From the IMG/VR virus record IMGVR_UViG_3300025413_000008: DNA of 64,000 bases. One strand, written 5' to 3'. The stretch's first letter is position 1. Each line of letters begins with the position of its first letter. The DNA comes from a virus. Taxonomy: Duplodnaviria > Heunggongvirae > Uroviricota > Caudoviricetes. A program made the translations under genes and the position numbers. The notes under the pieces were generated by a model. That model did no database searches, was not told the origin of the DNA, and saw only the letters and a program-made list of their open reading frames with translations. Shown one piece after another: positions 1,743 through 34,961 of the stretch.

Positions 1743-1973
1743 TTATCGTGCAATTTGTTTTAGTTTATCGTTATATACTTGTTTTTCAAGCAGTTCCGGA
1801 CTATTAATAGTCAACTGATCAATTTCATAATCACTTGGAAAGTGGCGCAAAATACCGCGCGCGCGATCACGAATAATGCTTGGAACTCGTGGCGTTTTAC
1901 CGGGATCGCAGAGTTCTTCTAATAACTTTTTTCCCTGCTTCAATGCGCGGTATCTATCCTCTGATGTTGTCAT
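1743..1973 (-). CDS. Small conserved hypothetical protein (resembles BPSL0761-type proteins, from memory)
   Basis: SD ACAGGAG upstream; motif DPGKTPRVPSIIRDRARGILRHFP. Confidence 0.7.
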   Translation of the reverse strand: MTTSEDRYRALKQGKKLLEELCDPGKTPRVPSIIRDRARGILRHFPSDYEIDQLTINSPELLEKQVYNDKLKQIAR

Positions 1974-1990
1974 ACGACTTCTCCTGTGTT

Positions 1991-2018
1991 AAAAAGTGGG
2001 GAGGGAAACCCTCCCCAC
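1991..2018 (-). terminator. Rho-independent terminator after gp32
   Basis: Perfect 10-bp stem GTGGGGAGGG/CCCTCCCCAC with 3-nt loop, followed by TTTTT on the minus strand. Confidence 0.9.
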
Positions 2019-2024
2019 ATCTAA

Positions 2025-3014
2025 TTACTTAGATTGGCGAGCGCGGATCATCGCAAGGATGTCCTGTGCTTTATCAGTTGAAGTTGACTTTTCTGGAACC
2101 ACGATTGGATCAACGTCAAATGGAACATCGTCATCAATTGGTTCAGAGACAGTTGGTGCAGTAGCGGTTGCGCTGGTTTCAGCAGTCGCTGGTTTTTGAG
2201 ACGCTACTGCACCTTCCGGTGCTGCCAATCCATAAGGACGGTAGTATGCACCCCACTTATCGTTGTCATAAGGGCGACCATCAACGGATGCTTCAAACAT
2301 TTCCTTGATAATACGAAGTTCTGCATCGCTTGGTTTCTTTGGTAGGAAACTCTTGAGGTCAAACAGACCGTGCGCGTCAATTGCTGCCAATTCTGCTTCT
2401 GTTAGCGGGGACTCTTTACGCGCATAGTTGGACGTAGTGTAATCCCCATATCCTCCCTTGGCAGTCTTACGGATAACGAAATCAAGACCACTGACATAAT
2501 CGGTTGGGAGTTCGCTCATTTCAGGGTCCATCAGGCCAGTTTTAATGATTGGAATGATCTGTGGCGTAATGATAAAACGGCGAATAGGATTGGCTGGAGC
2601 AACATCATCACCAAGTGGATTTACACGAACAAATCCTTGGAACAGATATGTGCGCTTCTTCCAATATTTACCAGCAAGTTCCTTCAATGTGTCATCTTTA
2701 TACCAAGGACGAACTTCTGCGAGAACTGGACAGTTATCGCCATACATTTCTACGCAAGGAACCTGAACAGTTAAAGGTTTGCTGTTGGAATCACCCTTAA
2801 TTCCATTGAAGGGCAACTTGATCATTGCTCTTTCTACCCAGAAAAACGAATTTGTTGGATCATTATCTGGAAGAAAACGTAAAGTTGCTGTGGAGCCTTC
2901 TGTCATGTTCCAGAAGGGATAAATTGCATTGTCTGATTGTGAGTTGGAACCTTTGTTCTGTCCCTTGTTTTCTGCGGCTGCAATGCGAGCGCGGATTTCT
3001 GCTAAGTTTGCCAT
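2025..3014 (-). CDS. 32: T4 gp32-like single-stranded DNA-binding protein
   Basis: LRFLP, CPV, YWKK, DFVIRKTAKGGYGDY motifs; acidic flexible C-terminal tail; SD AAGGAG. Confidence 0.9.
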   Translation of the reverse strand: MANLAEIRARIAAAENKGQNKGSNSQSDNAIYPFWNMTEGSTATLRFLPDNDPTNSFFWVERAMIKLPFNGIKGDSNSKPLTVQVPCVEMYGDNCPVLAEVRPWYKDDTLKELAGKYWKKRTYLFQGFVRVNPLGDDVAPANPIRRFIITPQIIPIIKTGLMDPEMSELPTDYVSGLDFVIRKTAKGGYGDYTTSNYARKESPLTEAELAAIDAHGLFDLKSFLPKKPSDAELRIIKEMFEASVDGRPYDNDKWGAYYRPYGLAAPEGAVASQKPATAETSATATAPTVSEPIDDDVPFDVDPIVVPEKSTSTDKAQDILAMIRARQSK

Positions 3015-3093
3015 TTGTTTTTCTCCTTTTAAATGTGCTTTGTTTTGAGCTAAATGTTAGATTTAATGTTTTGCTTTTGGAGCACACTTTATG

Positions 3094-3122
3094 GTTATAT
3101 AACAATAACCACTCAGTGTCAA
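3094..3122 (-). promoter_or_regulatory. Sigma70-type promoter of gp32 (TTGACA-17-TATAAC), with a late-type CTAAATA just upstream at 3124-3130
   Basis: Exact -35 hexamer and 17-bp spacer, read directly. Confidence 0.8.
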
Positions 3123-3169
3123 GTATTTAGTTTCGGGATTTACCCAAAATATGTAATTATATTGCGCGA

Positions 3170-5848
3170 TCAGTATCTGAAACGCGCAATATCCAAGATT
3201 CTGGTAAGTTCATCATTCTCGGCACTTTCGTTGGCACCAACCAACTTACCAATGTTATTATTTTTGACTTTTTCGGTTGGTCCAAGCTGTCCTACGCGCT
3301 TTTGTTCTGGTCCTAAATTTTCTTCAAGTTCTTCTGATCCTGCTTCCGCTTCTGCCTCTTCACGCGAAGAACATGGTCCACCACGATCTACAATGTGACC
3401 ATTCTTTGCACGGGTCCAGAACCATTCTCCATGACCAAGTTCATCAGCATCTTGCCAGACTTTTATATCATCTGACATTTTCATTGCTGGATCATCCCAT
3501 CCTTCAGGAATACCAAGAGGATTGTTTGAAGTTAAACTTTCGTTATCTGCTTCCGCAATGTCTTCTTTTGTGGTTTTATTGCCCCAGTTTTTGGCACCCT
3601 TTTTGCGACACTGCACTAATGCACCGCTTGCATATGCAGAAGGCCAGACCTTGTAGCGAGATTTGACTTTACGATAACATGCATCCTGCTTTTCGTTAAT
3701 CATCTCTTCGTTGACTAACTCACCGCCACAATGCGGACATTTTTCTTCACTTTCATTTTTTACACAGTTAGGGTATGTCTTGCCGAACATCTTTTTGTTA
3801 CCATCCTTATGATAACCCTTCCAGCAATTTTCATCCATATTTTGCACATTCTCATGGGTTTCGCACATGCCGCAATCGGGACATGTCATTTCCATTTCTA
3901 CACTTTCATTATGTTTTTTACGCCCCTTGCAATGCGCTTTTTGACTAAATCCTTTTGGATGTGAACAGTCAATGCTGCTCTTATATTTTTGGCTCCACTT
4001 TTCAGCCAATAGATTTTCATCTAACGATTCATCGGCTTTCTTTTTCTTAGTGGCAACATTTATTGCCTTGCCATGGCGGTCTGGGTTTGGGTCTTCTTTG
4101 CGTTTGCGAGTGGCTGCACTTGCTCTGCCTTTTTTGCCCAATGCTTGCGCCTTTTTCTGTGGGAGACACTTTGGTTTGCCCTCACTATCACTTCCTCTGG
4201 CACATGGACCCTTTATTTTCCCATTTGGACCGAATCTAACCCATTTTTCTTTAAACCACTTGTGGAGATTTTCTTCCAATTCAGTTGTTTCATTTACATC
4301 GTGAGGGTTTTCAAGAGTAGAAACGTGATGACGAGTTACGTTTCCATCTTTATCTTTAATTGAATATGACTCACCGTTATTATGTTTTTTAACAACTGTT
4401 CCATGCAGTCCAGCATGATCACCATTTATGACTTTAGTATTATCACCGGGACTAAGTTCAAATTCCCAGTTTTTAAATTCTTCGTCTATTTCAGTAGCTT
4501 CATACATGGTGTCATCTACTTTTTTCATAGCAGATGTTACCCCTGTTCTTCTTCTCGCGGCCTTTTTTTCCAAGTCAGACGCTTGACTGGCATACTTATT
4601 TTTGGCAGTATATGAAGTTAATTTTTTTGCTCTTTTTCTCAAATCTTCAGACTTATCAACTTTTGCTTTGTAATCGTCCGCAGCAGCCTGAATATATGGG
4701 TCTTCCGATTTTAATTCATCAAGTTCCATTGTTTCATTTACTAGAGCATCTGCCCAATCGGCAAGTTCATTTATTTCTCTTGCTTCTGATACGTTCTTGT
4801 GCAGGCGGGAAAGTATTGGCATTACCGATTCAATGCGTGGATCAAGACTTGAGCTTTTAAACATCTCACTGATGTCTACCGAACCGTCATCTTCCATTAA
4901 GGTTGGCGTCCATGATTCAAAATACATGTTATAACCGCGATGGCCAGTGAGTTTGTTAAGATTTTCACGTAAACCATTATAATGGTTGATGCCTTCGTTT
5001 ACGAGGGTTTGAACAGATTCGTTAAACTGTTTATTCTTGGTAGCACGAACAAATCCAGCCATTTTGCTATATTCTTCGCAGAGACCTTTAATATGGTTCC
5101 AGCGTTCATCGTTAGGAACGCCACCTTCTGCAATGTGGCGAGCATATACGCGAGCCAGACCGGGGCGAGTAGTGGGAGCCAAGAAACGTTCCCCATCTAC
5201 GTTTTCAAGATAGATTTTGGCAACGTTGCGATAACGCTGTTCGCCTTCTTCAAGAGCACGGTTATGTTGCAAGACAATCTTTACATTAGGAACAGCATCG
5301 TTGTATGATGCTTTTTTACCCATTGAGTAATATCCCTCTTCCACCTTTTCTTTACCGTAATTTTTGCAACCCTTTATATGGGGAATGGAAGATTTGGCTA
5401 AAGAATCACAGCAGTCTCGCATGCCTTTTCCGTATTTGCCTTCGCCTAATTTCTTTTTCATCTTGTAATATTCTCGCTGTTTCATATCGTCACCAAGACG
5501 GTCTTTGTTTGACAATTCAAAACTCATCTGTTTACGCTGTGCCCACTGTTTTAAAAGTTTAAGAAAACCCGTCCATGTATCATCATAGTCAAGCCCCGGT
5601 GTTTCTACATCAGGACTATCTTCTTGTTCTTCATCATAATACACGATCAGTGTTTGGGCATCATCAATGCTTACCCAAACTTTACCATAATCTTCGTCAT
5701 TTTTGATAAAATTAAATTCAATAACGTCCGCATCTTGCGAAGCATTGACGCGCTGATTTTTGTAGTTAAGGGGTGTAGGTTTATAACCTCTTACTTTGAG
5801 AAGGTCATATAACTTATGATTGAATGAGGAGTTGTCAATGTTTGCCAT
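3170..5848 (-). CDS. 892-aa modular late protein, probable prohead/internal head polyprotein
   Basis: Late box 5 nt before ATG. Basic Cys-containing modules alternate with acidic linkers ending in LEE/LDE/INE/VEE; KOW-like segment. Confidence 0.75.
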   Translation of the reverse strand: MANIDNSSFNHKLYDLLKVRGYKPTPLNYKNQRVNASQDADVIEFNFIKNDEDYGKVWVSIDDAQTLIVYYDEEQEDSPDVETPGLDYDDTWTGFLKLLKQWAQRKQMSFELSNKDRLGDDMKQREYYKMKKKLGEGKYGKGMRDCCDSLAKSSIPHIKGCKNYGKEKVEEGYYSMGKKASYNDAVPNVKIVLQHNRALEEGEQRYRNVAKIYLENVDGERFLAPTTRPGLARVYARHIAEGGVPNDERWNHIKGLCEEYSKMAGFVRATKNKQFNESVQTLVNEGINHYNGLRENLNKLTGHRGYNMYFESWTPTLMEDDGSVDISEMFKSSSLDPRIESVMPILSRLHKNVSEAREINELADWADALVNETMELDELKSEDPYIQAAADDYKAKVDKSEDLRKRAKKLTSYTAKNKYASQASDLEKKAARRRTGVTSAMKKVDDTMYEATEIDEEFKNWEFELSPGDNTKVINGDHAGLHGTVVKKHNNGESYSIKDKDGNVTRHHVSTLENPHDVNETTELEENLHKWFKEKWVRFGPNGKIKGPCARGSDSEGKPKCLPQKKAQALGKKGRASAATRKRKEDPNPDRHGKAINVATKKKKADESLDENLLAEKWSQKYKSSIDCSHPKGFSQKAHCKGRKKHNESVEMEMTCPDCGMCETHENVQNMDENCWKGYHKDGNKKMFGKTYPNCVKNESEEKCPHCGGELVNEEMINEKQDACYRKVKSRYKVWPSAYASGALVQCRKKGAKNWGNKTTKEDIAEADNESLTSNNPLGIPEGWDDPAMKMSDDIKVWQDADELGHGEWFWTRAKNGHIVDRGGPCSSREEAEAEAGSEELEENLGPEQKRVGQLGPTEKVKNNNIGKLVGANESAENDELTRILDIARFRY

Positions 5849-28637: not shown

Positions 28638-29786
28638 CTATTTATAATTCAAATCGTTGCTCTTGTCAAGAGTTTTTCCAACGTACTCATGAGAAAAACA
28701 TACTCTTTTAATATGTTTGTCCTTGTGGTTCTTTTCCTTGACGGCGCGGTTGGTTATATAATCTTTTCTACCCTTACCGTTCTTTGACGTTCCTCTCCAC
28801 CGTGGGGAAGAGTTTCTGTATTCACCCAATCGTGGATGCGCAGTTTTAGAAAAAAACCTACAACCTCTTGCTAAGAAGATTTCACCAATAGCATCACTTA
28901 AACGGGTCCCAAACCCAAGACCCTGATATTCCGGAAGAATTACTGTTCGGTGTCCTCTCCATGCATTCTTGAAGTTGCCATTTGGGAATGGAAGAGCGGC
29001 AGCAAATCCTACTATTTCACCATCCCAAATAGCTAACCAGCATTGTGCAGTTCTATTAAGGTTCCCGTCGAGATAGTGATGGTGGCGAAAGATAGGCCAG
29101 ATTTCGGTTGAACAAGGTATGATTTCCAGTTTGATTTCGGGTCTTGGCCGAAGAGACCCCCTTCCGGTCATTTGACCGGTCATAGTATCATATACCCAAT
29201 CGGGCTGTAACCATTCAATCACATCATAATGGCATGTTGCAAGAACAATGTTCTTTAGGTTATGTTTGTCAACATATCTACGAATTGCAACAGAACACGA
29301 TTTAGCTACATTCCTGTCAATAACAGATGTGAACTCATCAAAGACCATACCTGATACCAATGATCTTGCGAGATTGGCGCGAAACTGTTCTCCATTTGAA
29401 AGAACATGATATGGCCTGAGCCAAGATGGAATGGTGTTTAATCCCACAGCAGACAGTCGTTCTGCAGCTTGATCTGCCGATTCAAAGTGTGAGCAGATTG
29501 CTTTAGTTTCATCCCATTCAGGCTGTTCAGTAGAACCAAACGATTTCAACAGAGATGACTTACCTGATCCAGATGGACCAACAATCAACCCGATACCATA
29601 ATCTTCCGGAATACTTGGAACATTTGGAACAGTAAATGTGGTAGTCCCGTTGAACTCATAGTCAAACATAGATGATACTGCTTTAGTGATATCATCTTGA
29701 GATACAGATACCGATATATCTCTACTCGGTATCTTATCGTTCTCAAACTCAAATAGAGATGCTATACTATCGTGCATATTATTCAT
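28638..29786 (-). CDS. ABC-type ATPase fused to a GNAT acetyltransferase
   Basis: GPSGSGKS, LSNGEQFR, VFDEFTS; RTVILPEYQGLGFG. Confidence 0.85.
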   Translation of the reverse strand: MNNMHDSIASLFEFENDKIPSRDISVSVSQDDITKAVSSMFDYEFNGTTTFTVPNVPSIPEDYGIGLIVGPSGSGKSSLLKSFGSTEQPEWDETKAICSHFESADQAAERLSAVGLNTIPSWLRPYHVLSNGEQFRANLARSLVSGMVFDEFTSVIDRNVAKSCSVAIRRYVDKHNLKNIVLATCHYDVIEWLQPDWVYDTMTGQMTGRGSLRPRPEIKLEIIPCSTEIWPIFRHHHYLDGNLNRTAQCWLAIWDGEIVGFAAALPFPNGNFKNAWRGHRTVILPEYQGLGFGTRLSDAIGEIFLARGCRFFSKTAHPRLGEYRNSSPRWRGTSKNGKGRKDYITNRAVKEKNHKDKHIKRVCFSHEYVGKTLDKSNDLNYK

Positions 29787-31401
29787 CTGCTATTTCAAAC
29801 AGGTCCCCATATGGGTTCTGTTCTTTTTCGTATTGCTCTTTTGCATTCTGAATACGTGCTTGTGAAATCTTGATATAATCTGGATCAAGATCAATGCCAA
29901 TATAGTTGAAGCCTTCAAGCATCGCAGCCTTACCTGTTGAACCAGAACCATTGAATGGATCAAGAACGGTTCCACCTTTTGGTGTGACTAAACGACACAG
30001 ATACTTCATCAAGTCAGTTGGTTTCACTGTTGGGTGATTGTTCTTTTTGTTTTCTGGATGAATCCACTCATTGTCTGTGCAATCACATGGTTCAATCTGA
30101 TATGCGCCACATTTGTTACATACGCGACGAATGCCGTTTCCCTTTTGATTAGATACAGCCTTTTTATCAAATCCATCAAGCCCCGAATCTCTATCGGATT
30201 TGCTGGCTTTGGCACAGTAGAAGAATCTTGCTGCTGATCCCGTGTCGCCTCGTTTCGCTGATGGAACTCTTTGATATTCACCATAGCAATTAGTATTATC
30301 ATTTCCTGTATGTGATGGCTCTGTTCCTTTTACATCACCTTGTTGACCCTTACTTTCAGGAAACAATGCGACAACTTCATCACTACCATCATGAATGATA
30401 TTAGCGGGGAATCTTCCCGATACTGTTGCAGTTCCAATACTTATTTGCTTAGCTCCAATACCATATGCTCCACACCCCTTAGCGTTTGGATTATCGTTGC
30501 CCCCTTCACGGGCGAGATTATTTAAATTTTCTCCACCTTTTAAATCATATGTGCGAGTCTCATTACCAACACGACAATCATTAATATTGATGCCACCAGT
30601 TCCATGCTTTAGAACGTTCTTCGCTACAGTCTTTTCAGATAGTGGCTTCCTAGCAACGCAAATAGGCTCCCATGCTGGCTTCAGTGCCGTGCCCCAGCCA
30701 TCCCATTGTTTTGCTTCTTCTGTTGCTGGTGCAGTAATGTTTACTTCAGTCCGTGTCATTCCATATGAATGTGAGCCGCTTGCTGCTCCATTTTTAATGC
30801 CTACTTTCTTTTTACCCACGATTTCACGTTCCGCTGCATCTCGCAGAGGTCGCAGTTCTGAGGGAAGTTCAAGAACATCAACAAGTTTTTCCCAGTTATC
30901 TCCTGACGGTATTCTGAGACCGCTTTCCCAGTTCCAACATGCACCAGATGGGGTTCCTACTATTAGTTCGCTAATATCTTGTCTTGATAAACCCTTCTTT
31001 TCTCTTGCCGCTATCAATGCTATTCTAAACTTCTCAATAGATTCCGAAGGGGCAATGCCTTCTTTATCAATAGCCTTACCGATGTTCATAGACTTAGGAA
31101 AGCCAGAGCCATAAACCCATCCGATTTGATCGCGAATATCAAATCCAGCGTCTTCAATCGCTACTACCATTCTATGATATGTGCGAGTGCCAGAGAATGC
31201 AAGTAGATGACCACCTGGTTTCAATACTCGCATCACTTCTGACCACATTTCAACACTATATGCGATGCCAGAACTGTCCCATGATTTACCCATGAAGCCA
31301 AGTTCATACGGGGGATCAGTTACTACAGAATCTACAGAGTTGTCTTCCATAGTTTTTAATACGTCAACACAGTTGCCGTTATGCAATACAAATTTACTCA
31401 C
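29779..31401 (-). CDS. Beta-class N4/N6 DNA methyltransferase with an inserted XRE HTH domain
   Basis: DPPY near the N-terminus, LDPFNGSGSTG near the C-terminus, HPTVKP; GTG start. Confidence 0.9.
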   Translation of the reverse strand: MSKFVLHNGNCVDVLKTMEDNSVDSVVTDPPYELGFMGKSWDSSGIAYSVEMWSEVMRVLKPGGHLLAFSGTRTYHRMVVAIEDAGFDIRDQIGWVYGSGFPKSMNIGKAIDKEGIAPSESIEKFRIALIAAREKKGLSRQDISELIVGTPSGACWNWESGLRIPSGDNWEKLVDVLELPSELRPLRDAAEREIVGKKKVGIKNGAASGSHSYGMTRTEVNITAPATEEAKQWDGWGTALKPAWEPICVARKPLSEKTVAKNVLKHGTGGININDCRVGNETRTYDLKGGENLNNLAREGGNDNPNAKGCGAYGIGAKQISIGTATVSGRFPANIIHDGSDEVVALFPESKGQQGDVKGTEPSHTGNDNTNCYGEYQRVPSAKRGDTGSAARFFYCAKASKSDRDSGLDGFDKKAVSNQKGNGIRRVCNKCGAYQIEPCDCTDNEWIHPENKKNNHPTVKPTDLMKYLCRLVTPKGGTVLDPFNGSGSTGKAAMLEGFNYIGIDLDPDYIKISQARIQNAKEQYEKEQNPYGDLFEIADE

Positions 31402-31607: not shown

Positions 31608-31958
31608 TTAGTGTCCATAGCAAACTGTCTGGCGTGTGACGAACGTATTATACTGGTCAAAGGTGTCGTTAATCTGGCAAGTGCCGCGAAAACGATCATA
31701 GTAGGTATAAGTCGTGACTGTATGATATACCGGATAAACTGGCGGCGGGGAATACGTAGGCACTTGTGGATAAACATTTATTGGCTGTTGATGATCCGAA
31801 TTAGAAATAATCACGCCAATAACCCCACCGATAATCAGTGGAGCAATAAAATCTCCGCCATGTCCACCATGAACACCATGCCAATGTTCACGTGCTTCTG
31901 AGGCTACGGGTGCAGTAGCCAATGCGATTCCGAGTAATGCTGAAATAAGCTTTTTCAT
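31608..31958 (-). CDS. Exported/membrane protein with signal peptide and Gly-zipper segment
   Basis: MKKLISALLGIALATAPVASEA signal; IIGGVIGVII; promoter TTGACT-17-TATAGT at 31978-32006; SD AGGAG. Confidence 0.75.
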   Translation of the reverse strand: MKKLISALLGIALATAPVASEAREHWHGVHGGHGGDFIAPLIIGGVIGVIISNSDHQQPINVYPQVPTYSPPPVYPVYHTVTTYTYYDRFRGTCQINDTFDQYNTFVTRQTVCYGH

Positions 31959-32022
31959 ATATTTTCTCCTTAACTATACTATATATGCATTTTTGTAAAA
32001 AGTCAAGGAGAAAACATAAATC

Positions 32023-32598
32023 TTACTGGGTGCGAGTATTTCCGTAATGGACGATTTTTCCTGCATGTTGATGGGCAGTAATTCTTCTCCAAGGATCAAT
32101 TACAGTGGAATTAACCGGAAACTGCAATTCTTTCACATACTGTTCCCAGTAACCAATCAGATACACATCTGTGGATTCTCTCTTTAGATCAAGATCGCCG
32201 GTATGAATATCATAATAATTTACTGTTCCACCCAGTTCTTCAACATAGTGTCCGACAAGCATTGAAGAGGAACCATTAGTATAAGGAACATTAGGCTTAT
32301 ATGCCTTTCCAACAATGGTTACATTCTTTCCATATTCTAAGCAACGCTTAGCCATGTTTTCCGCCTGAACTTCTCTTGCTCGCATGATAGCATCAAACAA
32401 ATCATAACCAAGACCGAGATTATCAGCCATGTAACGTAATGCAATGTTATCCCTTGGATGACAATTATGAACTACCAACCCAGTGGCTGAATTAACATAA
32501 TATTGATCATCATCAGTTTCATGATTTGGCTTCACTTCCATGTTATATACAAAACCATCATATTTTACTTTAGTGATTTCGTTAATTGTCGTCTTCAT
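32023..32598 (-). CDS. ugd: Split-intein C fragment (45 aa) fused to the C-terminal part of UDP-glucose dehydrogenase (146 aa)
   Basis: Block F YDGFVYNMEV, block G VVHN|C; extein CHPRDNIAL...VGKAYKPNV...IDPWR. Confidence 0.92.
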   Translation of the reverse strand: MKTTINEITKVKYDGFVYNMEVKPNHETDDDQYYVNSATGLVVHNCHPRDNIALRYMADNLGLGYDLFDAIMRAREVQAENMAKRCLEYGKNVTIVGKAYKPNVPYTNGSSSMLVGHYVEELGGTVNYYDIHTGDLDLKRESTDVYLIGYWEQYVKELQFPVNSTVIDPWRRITAHQHAGKIVHYGNTRTQ

Positions 32599-33476
32599 AA
32601 TTTTTCCTTTAATGTTTTACATTTGTCTCCATGCCATCGTTTATAGTTGCCTTTATTGGTAACAATTCCACAATGATAACATAATTCTGTTTTCCCATTT
32701 AGTATTTGATTTTGTTTTTCACGTTCTTCTACTGTCCGGTTGACATTCCACAATTTAACTGCTTCTGATATCAGTCTACCTCGAATTTCTTTTTCTTCTT
32801 CTGTCAATCTATCATGATAATTCTGTGTAGCGGCTGATAAATTATTACGATGTTTTATGCTTTCTTCTTCTGTTCTATTGGCATAGTATTCTTTTGATCC
32901 CATGGAAAGCAGTTCAGCGGTATGTTCACATATACCTTCCCACCAACCTTGGCGCATCAATTCATTCTTACGTTTTTCATCTGCTAACACTTGGCTTACT
33001 CCATTGGTTATCCAAGTTTTACCATAAGCATTATTTTTTTCTCCGGTCTCATTCCGAATATTATTCAATGACACTCTTTTACTATTTGGTGATCTCCCAA
33101 TTGACCATCCTTGATCTTCCATAATATTAATCAATGATAATTTAACACACACTTCAATATCGCCTTTTGACATCCATTTGGTGCCCAGAACAGTATATCT
33201 TCCATCAGCATAACTTCTATTAAAACTCATTGGGCTGTTAACAGCATCCAATTCTTTTAGTATAATATTTTCACGTTGTCTTATGTATAATTGATCGCCT
33301 GTCTCTAATATTTCGCGAGACCATTGGTCCGGATTGGCAATAATCATTGGCTCAACTATATCACTTGAACATAGATATCCATCTTGTGGATGACAACCCT
33401 CGCGTGTGCGGGAACCAATATACCACATGCCGGTAGGTTTATATGTCCACTTATAAATGTATGCTATTGTTTTCAT
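32595..33476 (-). CDS. Free-standing GIY-YIG-type homing endonuclease between the intein halves; ATG at 33476
   Basis: YIYKWT...WYIGSR...Y..SS...E...N motif spacing; WITNG repeat; C-terminal CxxC..HGDKC; own late box at 33482-33489. Confidence 0.8.
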   Translation of the reverse strand: MKTIAYIYKWTYKPTGMWYIGSRTREGCHPQDGYLCSSDIVEPMIIANPDQWSREILETGDQLYIRQRENIILKELDAVNSPMSFNRSYADGRYTVLGTKWMSKGDIEVCVKLSLINIMEDQGWSIGRSPNSKRVSLNNIRNETGEKNNAYGKTWITNGVSQVLADEKRKNELMRQGWWEGICEHTAELLSMGSKEYYANRTEEESIKHRNNLSAATQNYHDRLTEEEKEIRGRLISEAVKLWNVNRTVEEREKQNQILNGKTELCYHCGIVTNKGNYKRWHGDKCKTLKEKL

Positions 33477-33498
33477 CAATATATTTATTATTTAATAT

Positions 33499-34569
33499 TC
33501 ATGTAAACTTATCAATGACAAACAACTTATCGGTGTGCAGCACTTCGTCAGCCCTAGTCAACATATGCACTCCATCTCGTTCAATAGGAAGTAGATGATT
33601 GTCAGTGACAATCAAATCACCAATGAAAGTGTTAAATTTGATCATCTCCCCACTGAATGGTGTTTTGGTTACCGCCTTGATTGTTTTTTGATCTGTCCTA
33701 CTGCAGTCTGCGGTGGTAGATACAACCATAAACTTATCGGTTGAATTAAATTTATCATATAATTCTTCCATAGTTATCATCTCGTCATTTACTGTTACCG
33801 TAAATGATGGGAGAACACACGCGCCGCCATCGCCCATTCCTGCAGTCATATAAGCCGGTCCAGTGATACGATAATTGGAACGTGCGAGAGCACCTGTGAC
33901 CACATCAACGTTGATGTTACCATTTTTCTCGGCAACATCCTGAATCATATTGACAATTCCAACTTTTGCCGAAATAAAAGTATTGTAAAAAATCTTAATT
34001 GATTCTGCCTCATCCCATGTTCCTACTTCATATCGTGGGTCATTTTGCATGAATGCCTCATAAAAATGAATCAGTTCGGCAGCATCACCTGTAATAGAAC
34101 CATCTTCGGTGCCAATGATGACCATTTCTGGATTAGCCATGTCCCATTTAATAGTTCCCATTGCGATAAGATATGGGTTATAAATGAAGCGCGCATTGGT
34201 AATGCAAGGGCGCAATTGATTGCGCACTGTTCCAGGAAGGACAGTGCTAATTAATACTACTAACTGATTCTTATTAACCCATTTATTAACTTCTTTGAGA
34301 ATATCCGTCACAATGGTATAATCAAAATCTTTATTAGGGAGGTGACTTGTTGGAGTTTCACCGCCATATATGGGGTTATGTGGTGTCGGTGCCGCAATGA
34401 AGATAATATCTCTTCCTGATACTGCTTCCTGAATAGTATTACACATTGGAAACGTTGGAGTTCTTAATTCTACATCATAACCGACAACATCATAATAATC
34501 TGCCATTACTTCTGCGCAGTCTTGTCCGAGTTTTCCAACTCCAATCATTGCTACTTTTTTAATTGCCAT
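33499..34569 (-). CDS. ugd: N-terminal part of UDP-glucose dehydrogenase (250 aa) fused to the split-intein N fragment (106 aa, 33502-33819)
   Basis: IGVGKLG Rossmann motif, APTP, STVLPGT, KIFYNTFISAK, GMGDGGA|CVLP; block B VTDNH. Confidence 0.92.
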   Translation of the reverse strand: MAIKKVAMIGVGKLGQDCAEVMADYYDVVGYDVELRTPTFPMCNTIQEAVSGRDIIFIAAPTPHNPIYGGETPTSHLPNKDFDYTIVTDILKEVNKWVNKNQLVVLISTVLPGTVRNQLRPCITNARFIYNPYLIAMGTIKWDMANPEMVIIGTEDGSITGDAAELIHFYEAFMQNDPRYEVGTWDEAESIKIFYNTFISAKVGIVNMIQDVAEKNGNINVDVVTGALARSNYRITGPAYMTAGMGDGGACVLPSFTVTVNDEMITMEELYDKFNSTDKFMVVSTTADCSRTDQKTIKAVTKTPFSGEMIKFNTFIGDLIVTDNHLLPIERDGVHMLTRADEVLHTDKLFVIDKFT

Positions 34570-34708
34570 TTTTTAATTCCTGTTCAAATTTTTCAATTTC
34601 TGATTCAAGGGCGGCGCGAAAGGCAGAAGTAAGTTCATAGATTACATGGTCCTCTCCATGAAGGGCGATCATATCTTGTATTACTTCCTTATCAATTTCA
34701 AACTTCAC
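34559..34708 (-). CDS. 49-aa acidic protein, GTG start (not in the ORF track)
   Basis: Manually translated MKFEIDKEVIQD...; overlaps both neighbours; SD GAGGA. Confidence 0.5.
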   Translation of the reverse strand: MKFEIDKEVIQDMIALHGEDHVIYELTSAFRAALESEIEKFEQELKNGN

Positions 34709-34961
34709 TGATATCTTCCTTAATACTTTTTGGCGCGCTTACCTTATAAGTTCTAATGTTGGTAAGAATGTCTCTCATTTTTACTTCAATACTGTTGTCA
34801 TCTGTATCAAGTGTAACCCGTGCTGCTGCTGTCGGTCCAAACACTCTAAGAATATCATTCATGATCGCATCGCAGGTTTCTTGTGAAATTTCTTCAAATA
34901 GATATTTTGTGATGATGGAATTTACAGCAGTATCCATCTGTTCATGCATATTAAAGGTCAT
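34698..34961 (-). CDS. Hypothetical protein
   Basis: Contiguous operon ORF. Confidence 0.65.
   Translation of the reverse strand: MTFNMHEQMDTAVNSIITKYLFEEISQETCDAIMNDILRVFGPTAAARVTLDTDDNSIEVKMRDILTNIRTYKVSAPKSIKEDISEV

Follow-up and report, generated by a model that had tools for sequence, protein, structure and literature searches.

Fractured genes, in which a split intein separates the two halves of an enzyme, were described by Dassa et al. in 2009 from 26 loci belonging to eight host types, all of them enzymes of DNA synthesis or repair (PMC2677866). The nucleases of these loci were either GIY-YIG or Vsr-like, one locus was nuclease-less, and a hairpin together with a late-promoter element was found in the 5' region of the nuclease gene in 15 of the 16 published loci (PMC2677866). 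Contiguous inteins are also known in UDP-glucose dehydrogenases (UGDHs) of Methanococci, Halobacteria, and a few bacteria, where the allele is named "udp" or UDP-GD (PMC2874743, PMC4071816). Here we analyzed a 64-kb stretch of DNA (hereafter, the window) from an uncultivated jumbo phage, which comes from a metagenomic assembly (IMG/VR record IMGVR_UViG_3300025413_000008). It very probably contains a fractured UGDH gene, interrupted directly before the codon of the catalytic Cys by a class-1 split intein and by the free-standing gene of a GIY-YIG homing endonuclease, the enzyme being restored, as we infer, by trans-splicing.

The layout of this locus and its phage or metagenome setting are those of the fractured genes that carry the gp41-1, gp41-8, NrdJ-1, IMPDH-1, and NrdA-2 inteins, in agreement with what the initial annotation of the window had claimed (PMC2677866). 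The published loci include GIY-YIG nucleases as one of their two types, a late-promoter-like box before the nuclease gene is common to both, and two nuclease-less relatives of our locus (L012 and L025) parallel their gp41-7 (PMC2677866). The host differs: it is a sugar-nucleotide dehydrogenase here and enzymes of DNA synthesis and repair there, UGDH not being among them, and most of our sister loci carry a nuclease resembling T7 endonuclease I, a type outside their two (PMC2677866). The UGDH inteins are also only distantly related to split NrdJ-1 (1e-5). With the "udp" inteins they share the host enzyme family (PMC2874743, citing Perler 2002; Soucy et al. 2014, PMC4071816), but the "udp" inteins are contiguous, cellular, and mostly equipped with an internal LAGLIDADG domain, whereas the present one is split, occurs almost only in viral contigs in our scans, and is accompanied by a free-standing nuclease gene. 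The suggestion that UGDH is a new intein host holds in part: contiguous inteins in this enzyme were known (PMC4071816, PMC2874743), and for the split form we found no report in the open-access literature searched, where absence is not proof. We regard the locus as a known layout in a host enzyme that is new for split inteins, and the principle as such is not surprising.

The UGDH halves and their junction

Profile searches assigned the two outer genes of the locus (Table 1) to the UGDH family. The N-half matched PF03721 (UDPG_MGDP_dh_N, 54.2 bits) and PF00984 (UDPG_MGDP_dh, 39.8 bits), both above the cut-off, and residues 5 to 252 of the N protein matched PHROG 9148, labeled "UDP-glucose dehydrogenase," with an E value of 5.5e-67. 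The C-half matched positions 261 to 359 of the same PHROG (9.6e-23) and reached 19.8 bits with the UDP-binding domain PF03720, whose cut-off is 30. The halves abut both in PHROG 9148, where the N-half covers positions 2 to 263, and in TIGR03026, where the N-half ends at 265 and the C-half spans 263 to 395.

Intact phage alleles with this site, for which the initial annotation had suggested a search, do exist. Synechococcus phage Bellamy gp227 is intact and colinear with both halves (identity, 68.5% for the N-half and 54% for the C-half), and uninterrupted homologues were also found in marine virus AG-345-E15 and Pelagibacter phage HTVC008M, where the N-half match and the C-half match adjoin at one Cys codon, that of the catalytic site. 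Removal of the element leaves a colinear host protein that aligns end to end with Bellamy gp227, and the three-way alignment with Bellamy reads AGMGDGGA/CHPRDNIALR across the junction, with zero residues gained or lost. Given that the halves abut in the profiles and share one Cys codon as their boundary in intact alleles, the match is not due to chance. At the junction, all alleles have essentially the same peptide, GMGD[GSA]G[AG]/CHPRDNI, as expected of a homing target. A megablast search of the GenBank phages with the whole locus gave no match.

The correspondence between GGACHPRD and the active-site motif of UGDHs, likewise proposed beforehand, was borne out, as the junction Cys aligns with the active-site Cys of the GGSC and GGYC motifs in solved UGDHs. 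In the UGDH of Streptococcus pyogenes, Cys260 is the catalytic nucleophile. The match to structure 1dlj, which we take to be the C260S mutant of this enzyme, ends at query residue 251, corresponding to chain residue 260, and on the basis of this coincidence we assign to the +1 Cys of the C-half the roles of both splice nucleophile and catalytic thiol. The GGxC catalytic motif (GGA-C-HPRD) exists only once the halves are joined, and in either half alone the active site is incomplete.

The three genes of the locus are co-oriented open reading frames (ORFs), arranged head to tail in different frames, each with its own start and stop. For all three minus-strand ORFs, the coordinates and motifs read by the initial annotation were correct, as was the sum of 250 and 146 residues that gives a predicted spliced product of 396 amino acids (aa). 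The N-precursor gene has AGGA about 9 nucleotides (nt) before its ATG, and its start overlaps the end of a small upstream ORF; Cys1 of the N-terminal intein fragment (IntN) is Cys251 of the N protein and directly follows GMGDGGA. For the endonuclease gene, the ATG at position 33476, 22 nt past the N gene, is the likely start, the ORF caller giving a TTG at 33479. Inspection of the sequence upstream of this ATG revealed no Shine-Dalgarno sequence, and the late-type box previously noticed there is present as AATAAATA, one base off the T4 late consensus TATAAATA, with a putative function. The coupling of the endonuclease gene to the gene of the C-terminal intein fragment (IntC) was also seen: the ATG of the C-precursor gene overlaps the endonuclease stop (ATGA) and is preceded by AAGGA at about 8 nt.

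Table 1. Coordinates of the features of the fractured UGDH locus in the window and of features in sister loci
Feature	Position	Strand	Description
N-precursor gene	33499..34569	minus	356 aa, N-extein plus IntN; TGA stop at 33501-33499
N-extein	33820..34569	minus	UGDH-family residues 1-250; NAD-binding and central domains; C-terminal GMGDGGA
IntN	33502..33819	minus	106 aa; Cys1 codon at 33819-33817; block B T72-D-N-H75
Late-promoter-like box AATAAATA	33482..33489	minus	Putative, read from the sequence; 5 nt upstream of the endonuclease ATG
Free-standing endonuclease gene	32595..33476	minus	293 aa; N-terminal GIY-YIG domain (by predicted fold) plus helical C-terminal part
C-precursor gene	32023..32598	minus	191 aa, IntC plus C-extein
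IntC	32464..32598	minus	45 aa; block F VYNMEV; terminal VVHN (H44-N45)
C-extein	32026..32463	minus	146 aa; begins CHPRD; +1 Cys codon at 32463-32461, then putative UDP-binding domain
L012, nuclease-less split	N ORF ends 3996; IntC starts about 4007		
L025, nuclease-less split	N ORF ends 3979; IntC starts 4001		
Endonuclease-I-like nuclease	L004:6062-6874, L007:2962-3765, L008:3198-4001		Also in about 25 further loci

As the source is a metagenomic assembly, one may ask whether an assembly or sequencing artefact has broken up an intein that is really contiguous and contains the nuclease as an internal domain. The identical N protein is recorded on 12 contigs, however, and the same separate half-ORFs recur in more than 25 diverged loci. 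In addition, the three ORFs lie in different frames and two of them share the ATGA overlap, so that no single read-through joins them. We consider an artefact hardly conceivable.

Intein fragments and alternatives to trans-splicing

We then analyzed the two pieces inserted between the exteins. An exhaustive search with IntN yielded 42 cluster representatives, and 19 of the 20 that were scanned are UGDH N-halves, most of them ending in an IntN-like segment. Several IntN relatives match the Pfam models Intein_splicing or Hint directly (P0012 with 37.6 bits, against a cut-off of 35.8). When an alignment of 20 IntN relatives (A5) was used as a family profile against the PDB, solved inteins topped the list (KlbA, 2jmz, 9.8e-13; a DNA polymerase intein, 9hth, 7.2e-11), with further matches to Pab PolC (2lcj), PI-PkoII, PolII, split NrdJ-1 (8ubs, 1.1e-5), and TFIIB; weak non-intein rows started only at an E value of 0.04. 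In A5, Cys1 is nearly invariant (at least 90%), and block B has an invariant T72 and a nearly invariant H75. At the other end, the terminal His-Asn of VVHN and the Cys at +1 are invariant in 19/19 sequences of the IntC alignment (A6); in the 17 metagenomic homologues of IntC, VVHN is invariant. The Hint identity claimed earlier for both fragments is upheld by the matches of the family profile to solved inteins (1e-12 to 1e-5) and by the conservation of the splicing residues C1, TxxH, HN, and C+1. Judged by their sequences, the inserted pieces are the Hint N and C fragments of a class-1 intein.

The IntC family profile was rejected as an identifier, as polyubiquitin came out on top of its PDB list through nine summed 4-bit repeats, with the KlbA C terminus at an E value of 0.12. 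An acidic DDQYY insert between blocks F and G is invariant in A6. When the window was scanned with the IntN profile, a single copy was found, at this locus.

A prediction of the IntN-IntC complex, in which each fragment was supplied with its family alignment, obtained a score of 0.65, against 0.00 for the best of three controls. The runs agreed in at least 95% of the contacts, and the predicted local distance difference test value (pLDDT) of the partner was at least 69. In the benchmark, 58 of 80 solved complexes and 2 of 110 mismatched pairs attained this score mark, counts that apply only roughly to IntN and IntC because custom alignments were used. The two fragments are predicted to associate on this basis; since split-intein complexes have already been solved, the pass may reflect likeness to the solved ones and not binding.

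Association might also be all that the intein halves provide, in which case they would act as dimerization handles while the UGDH halves assemble noncovalently, or splicing might be very inefficient. This is the only rival explanation with some weight. Enzymes that function in unligated fragments have been described (PMC3045599; discussed in PMC2677866), and the Asn found in block F instead of the common Asp fits the idea. In the split NrdA of Aeromonas phage Aeh1, a free-standing nuclease gene similarly interrupts a phage metabolic gene whose two parts share an operon; that system reportedly has no intein and assembles noncovalently (PMC3045599), whereas here intein fragments with all splicing residues are attached to both halves. 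Moreover, C1, TxxH, HN, and C+1 have stayed invariant or nearly so although IntN has diverged to about 30 to 40% identity, which docking alone would not require. Unspliced assembly would leave about 150 intein residues on the catalytic Cys, and a contiguous allele among the relatives, L034, must splice to yield any enzyme. We judge docking without splicing to be unlikely, and trans-splicing of the two precursors remains our preferred explanation.

We also considered that the intervening DNA is an intron and that the halves are joined at the RNA level, an alternative already raised by the initial annotation, since group I introns are a frequent location of homing-endonuclease genes in phages. 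An Rfam search of positions 31800 to 34800, on both strands and with E values up to 1, matched no family. The flanks of the nuclease gene are, moreover, protein-coding, in frame with the exteins, conserved as protein, and intein-like, and we hold an intron to be extremely improbable.

The gene is interrupted, and the insertion of a nuclease gene could have killed it, leaving a decaying pseudogene. When the window was compared with four diverged relatives, synonymous sites proved saturated (proportion of synonymous differences, pS, 0.5 to 0.9), whereas the proportion of nonsynonymous differences (pN) is 0.05 to 0.45 in IntN and IntC and 0.05 to 0.39 in the exteins; for the nuclease gene compared with that of L002, pN is 0.10 and pS 0.41. 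With pN far below pS in all these parts, the comparison indicates that exteins, intein halves, and nuclease are kept under purifying selection and are not decaying. Every piece also keeps its start and stop, the Shine-Dalgarno sequence is kept in both extein genes, and the layout persists across many diverged lineages. Decay of the gene is very unlikely on these grounds.

Several observations weigh against a trans-splicing intein in a UGDH. The intein models of NCBIfam, by which both fragments were checked, do match at the right places, but the scores stay below the cut-off: IntN matches TIGR01445 (intein_Nterm) over residues 251 to 327 of the N protein with an E value of 0.002 and 19 bits, against 24.5, and IntC matches TIGR01443 (intein_Cterm) over residues 17 to 46 of the C protein with 14.4 bits, against 15.6. 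No intein or Hint model of Pfam matched the window's own fragments at E values up to 1, so that they lie below the curated cut-off of every intein model, and phmmer searches of the PDB with the single IntN and IntC sequences gave weak intein matches (E values of 0.04 to 1.4). In block F (VYN[ML]EV), all members of the family have Asn at a position that is Asp in many inteins. As for the enzyme, the phage clade shows CHPRD in place of the CxxKD of textbook UGDHs, and the substrate assignment rests at the level of a subfamily match (TIGR03026), with equivalog models far below the cut-off. A second intact UGDH copy may exist elsewhere in the genome, our view being that of the 64-kb window. Lastly, the hairpin of the published fractured genes was not found here, as no fold at the endonuclease start was better than those of shuffled sequences (z, -1.18).

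The middle gene, its relatives, and mobility

The protein encoded between the halves matches PHROG 314 ("homing endonuclease") with an E value of 5.6e-12, and none of the curated GIY-YIG models matches it directly. Over residues 1 to 86, it shares 35 to 44% identity with endonucleases from T4-like phages of Klebsiella and Yersinia; some of these endonucleases are annotated as GIY-YIG, and two match TIGR01453 (I-TevI type) at 1.2e-7 and 4.7e-5, below the cut-off. We fetched 80 relatives of the N-terminal domain from viral contigs and aligned 41 sequences (the domains of the window and L002 plus 39 of these relatives), 24 of which match PF19835 (SegE_GIY-YIG), the best with an E value of 3.9e-4. 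The motifs YxYKW...WYIGS...E...N are present in about residues 1 to 95.

Sequence profiles of the N-terminal domain found nothing in the PDB, and it was fold comparison, not sequence profiles, that settled the GIY-YIG identity. An AlphaFold2 model of residues 1 to 110, computed with the 41-member alignment, had a pLDDT of 86 (above 93 over residues 1 to 80), and its three best Foldseek matches were all to the I-TevI catalytic domain (probability 1.00, TM-score 0.51 to 0.60). VIA-align gave a Z score of 8.5 for the I-TevI catalytic domain, with a root mean square deviation of 2.9 Å over 82 of 94 residues, and lower Z scores for the other GIY-YIG nucleases PD-T4-3 (5.8), UvrC (4.9), and R.Eco29kI (3.5). 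Its predicted fold identifies the product of the middle gene as a GIY-YIG homing endonuclease, the type first proposed for it. Modeling of the whole nuclease from its single sequence reached a pLDDT of only 33; the helical C-terminal part presumably binds DNA. The protein shares the catalytic fold and motifs of I-TevI and of the T4 Seg proteins (PF01541, PF19835, TIGR01453) and, like the latter, is free-standing and consists of a nuclease domain and a helical tail; in contrast to both, its gene sits inside a split intein and not in an intron or an intergenic region. The GIY-YIG domain family is large in viral contigs (L046-L125), with 121 confirmed relatives at 43 to 60% identity, and Pfam sees it marginally, as SegE_GIY-YIG.

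The element is common in viral metagenomes. We found the succession of N-half, nuclease gene, and C-half in independent, diverged metagenome contigs from ENA, Logan, JGI, and NCBI. The collections were scanned with the IntC-extein junction as the query, the IntN alignment being too divergent. This junction was present in 30 IMG/VR viral contigs, and a scan of 185,579 prokaryote species, with one genome per species, gave only two doubtful matches. Most loci have split halves and a nuclease of 268 to 283 aa with a T7-endonuclease-I-like C-terminal domain. This nuclease has two invariant CxxC pairs followed by a PD-(D/E)xK domain and matches PDB entry 1m0d (1e-6) and the Pfam families DUF7487 and Phage_endo_I. 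The GIY-YIG form is rarer; in a profile survey of all loci, it was seen only in the window and in L002/L003. In L012 and L025, the split halves are about 10 to 25 nt apart and the nuclease gene is missing. L034 (positions 2822 to 4552) has a contiguous mini-intein in a full-length UGDH, and P0015, P0033, and P0041 have contiguous mini-inteins at the same Cys, exactly the present site, in more distant dehydrogenases.

For the nuclease of the sister loci, a Vsr-like/EDxHD identity was discarded, as no such structure matched and the significant matches were only to T7 endonuclease I (1e-6). Homology of the two nuclease types, as laid out in a forced alignment (A4), was also dismissed, since the hidden Markov model of neither type finds the other. 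The C-exteins of P0015, P0033, and P0041 have only about 45 to 55 aa, so that the UDP-binding domain is seemingly lacking or the proteins are truncated. Two viral contigs, L038 (369 kb; 1946-4603) and L039 (103 kb), contain a contiguous intein that is large, shows LAGLIDADG-like motifs, and likewise ends in VVHN/CHP; it lies in a host protein other than UGDH and is distantly related to the UGDH intein family (IntC, 3e-6). P0031 (787 aa) and P0025 are N-fragments of a family B DNA polymerase that end in a related IntN starting with CCHPD, which indicates that the UGDH split inteins have relatives among phage split polymerase inteins.

We next compared intein and extein trees of 17 loci, which are unrooted, so that the direction of transfer events is not read from them. 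The two trees disagree at supported nodes. The inteins of the window and L002 pair with that of L011 (support, 95/90), which carries the other nuclease type, whereas in the extein tree the window groups with L004, and L011 with L027 and L022. Similarly, L007 and L008 have sister inteins (99/98) that are 78 to 91% identical, while the exteins of these two loci are 44 to 54% identical. The contiguous L034 is sister to the split L018 in both trees. This incongruence points to mobility of the element between UGDH alleles, and the data fit a scenario in which the element moves between such alleles and the nuclease gene is exchanged within an already split intein.

Outside the element, the minus strand carries a 540-aa DNA-methyltransferase-like ORF (29779-31401), which follows the C gene downstream at a distance of about 600 nt. 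It has a DPPY motif near its N terminus, and its length looks unusual for its family.

Proposed mechanism and implications

We propose that the intein was split at the usual endonuclease-insertion loop and that the element is placed directly in front of the catalytic Cys. The three genes would yield the N-extein-IntN precursor (356 aa), the endonuclease (293 aa), and the IntC-C-extein precursor (191 aa). IntN and IntC would then come together as a single Hint fold and carry out trans-splicing, beginning with an N-S acyl shift at Ala250/Cys1, followed by transfer to the +1 Cys and then by cyclization of Asn45 and an S-N shift. This would yield an enzyme of 396 aa in which the active site reads GGA-C-HPRD and the +1 Cys serves as the catalytic thiol. 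Both the trans-splicing and the activity of the enzyme are inferred. The endonuclease, in turn, may cut intein-less alleles in coinfecting phages at or near the invariant coding sequence of GMGDGGA/CHPRDNI, and repair would then copy the whole element into the cut allele. This target of the nuclease, like a promoter function of AATAAATA, is a proposal read from the DNA.

A broader interpretation is that the UGDH intein family forms a natural series in four states, in which nucleases have been swapped within the split intein and contiguous and split forms have switched repeatedly, and that the 106+45-aa Cys1/Cys+1 pair of the window works as an efficient split intein, orthogonal to the established ones. 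We put this forward tentatively and consider it, taken as a whole, rather doubtful. Independently of this, the family is a source of candidate pairs of split inteins for protein ligation, only distant relatives of the ones in use. For annotation, pairs of half-genes that are now labeled "UDPglucose 6-dehydrogenase" or hypothetical should be read as one enzyme.

The locus would extend naturally split inteins and fractured genes from DNA metabolism to a sugar-nucleotide enzyme. A single site, the catalytic Cys of UGDH, hosts contiguous forms, split forms, and forms with two unrelated nucleases in phages, and the family thus constitutes a compact natural data set on the origin of split inteins and on the replacement of homing endonucleases.

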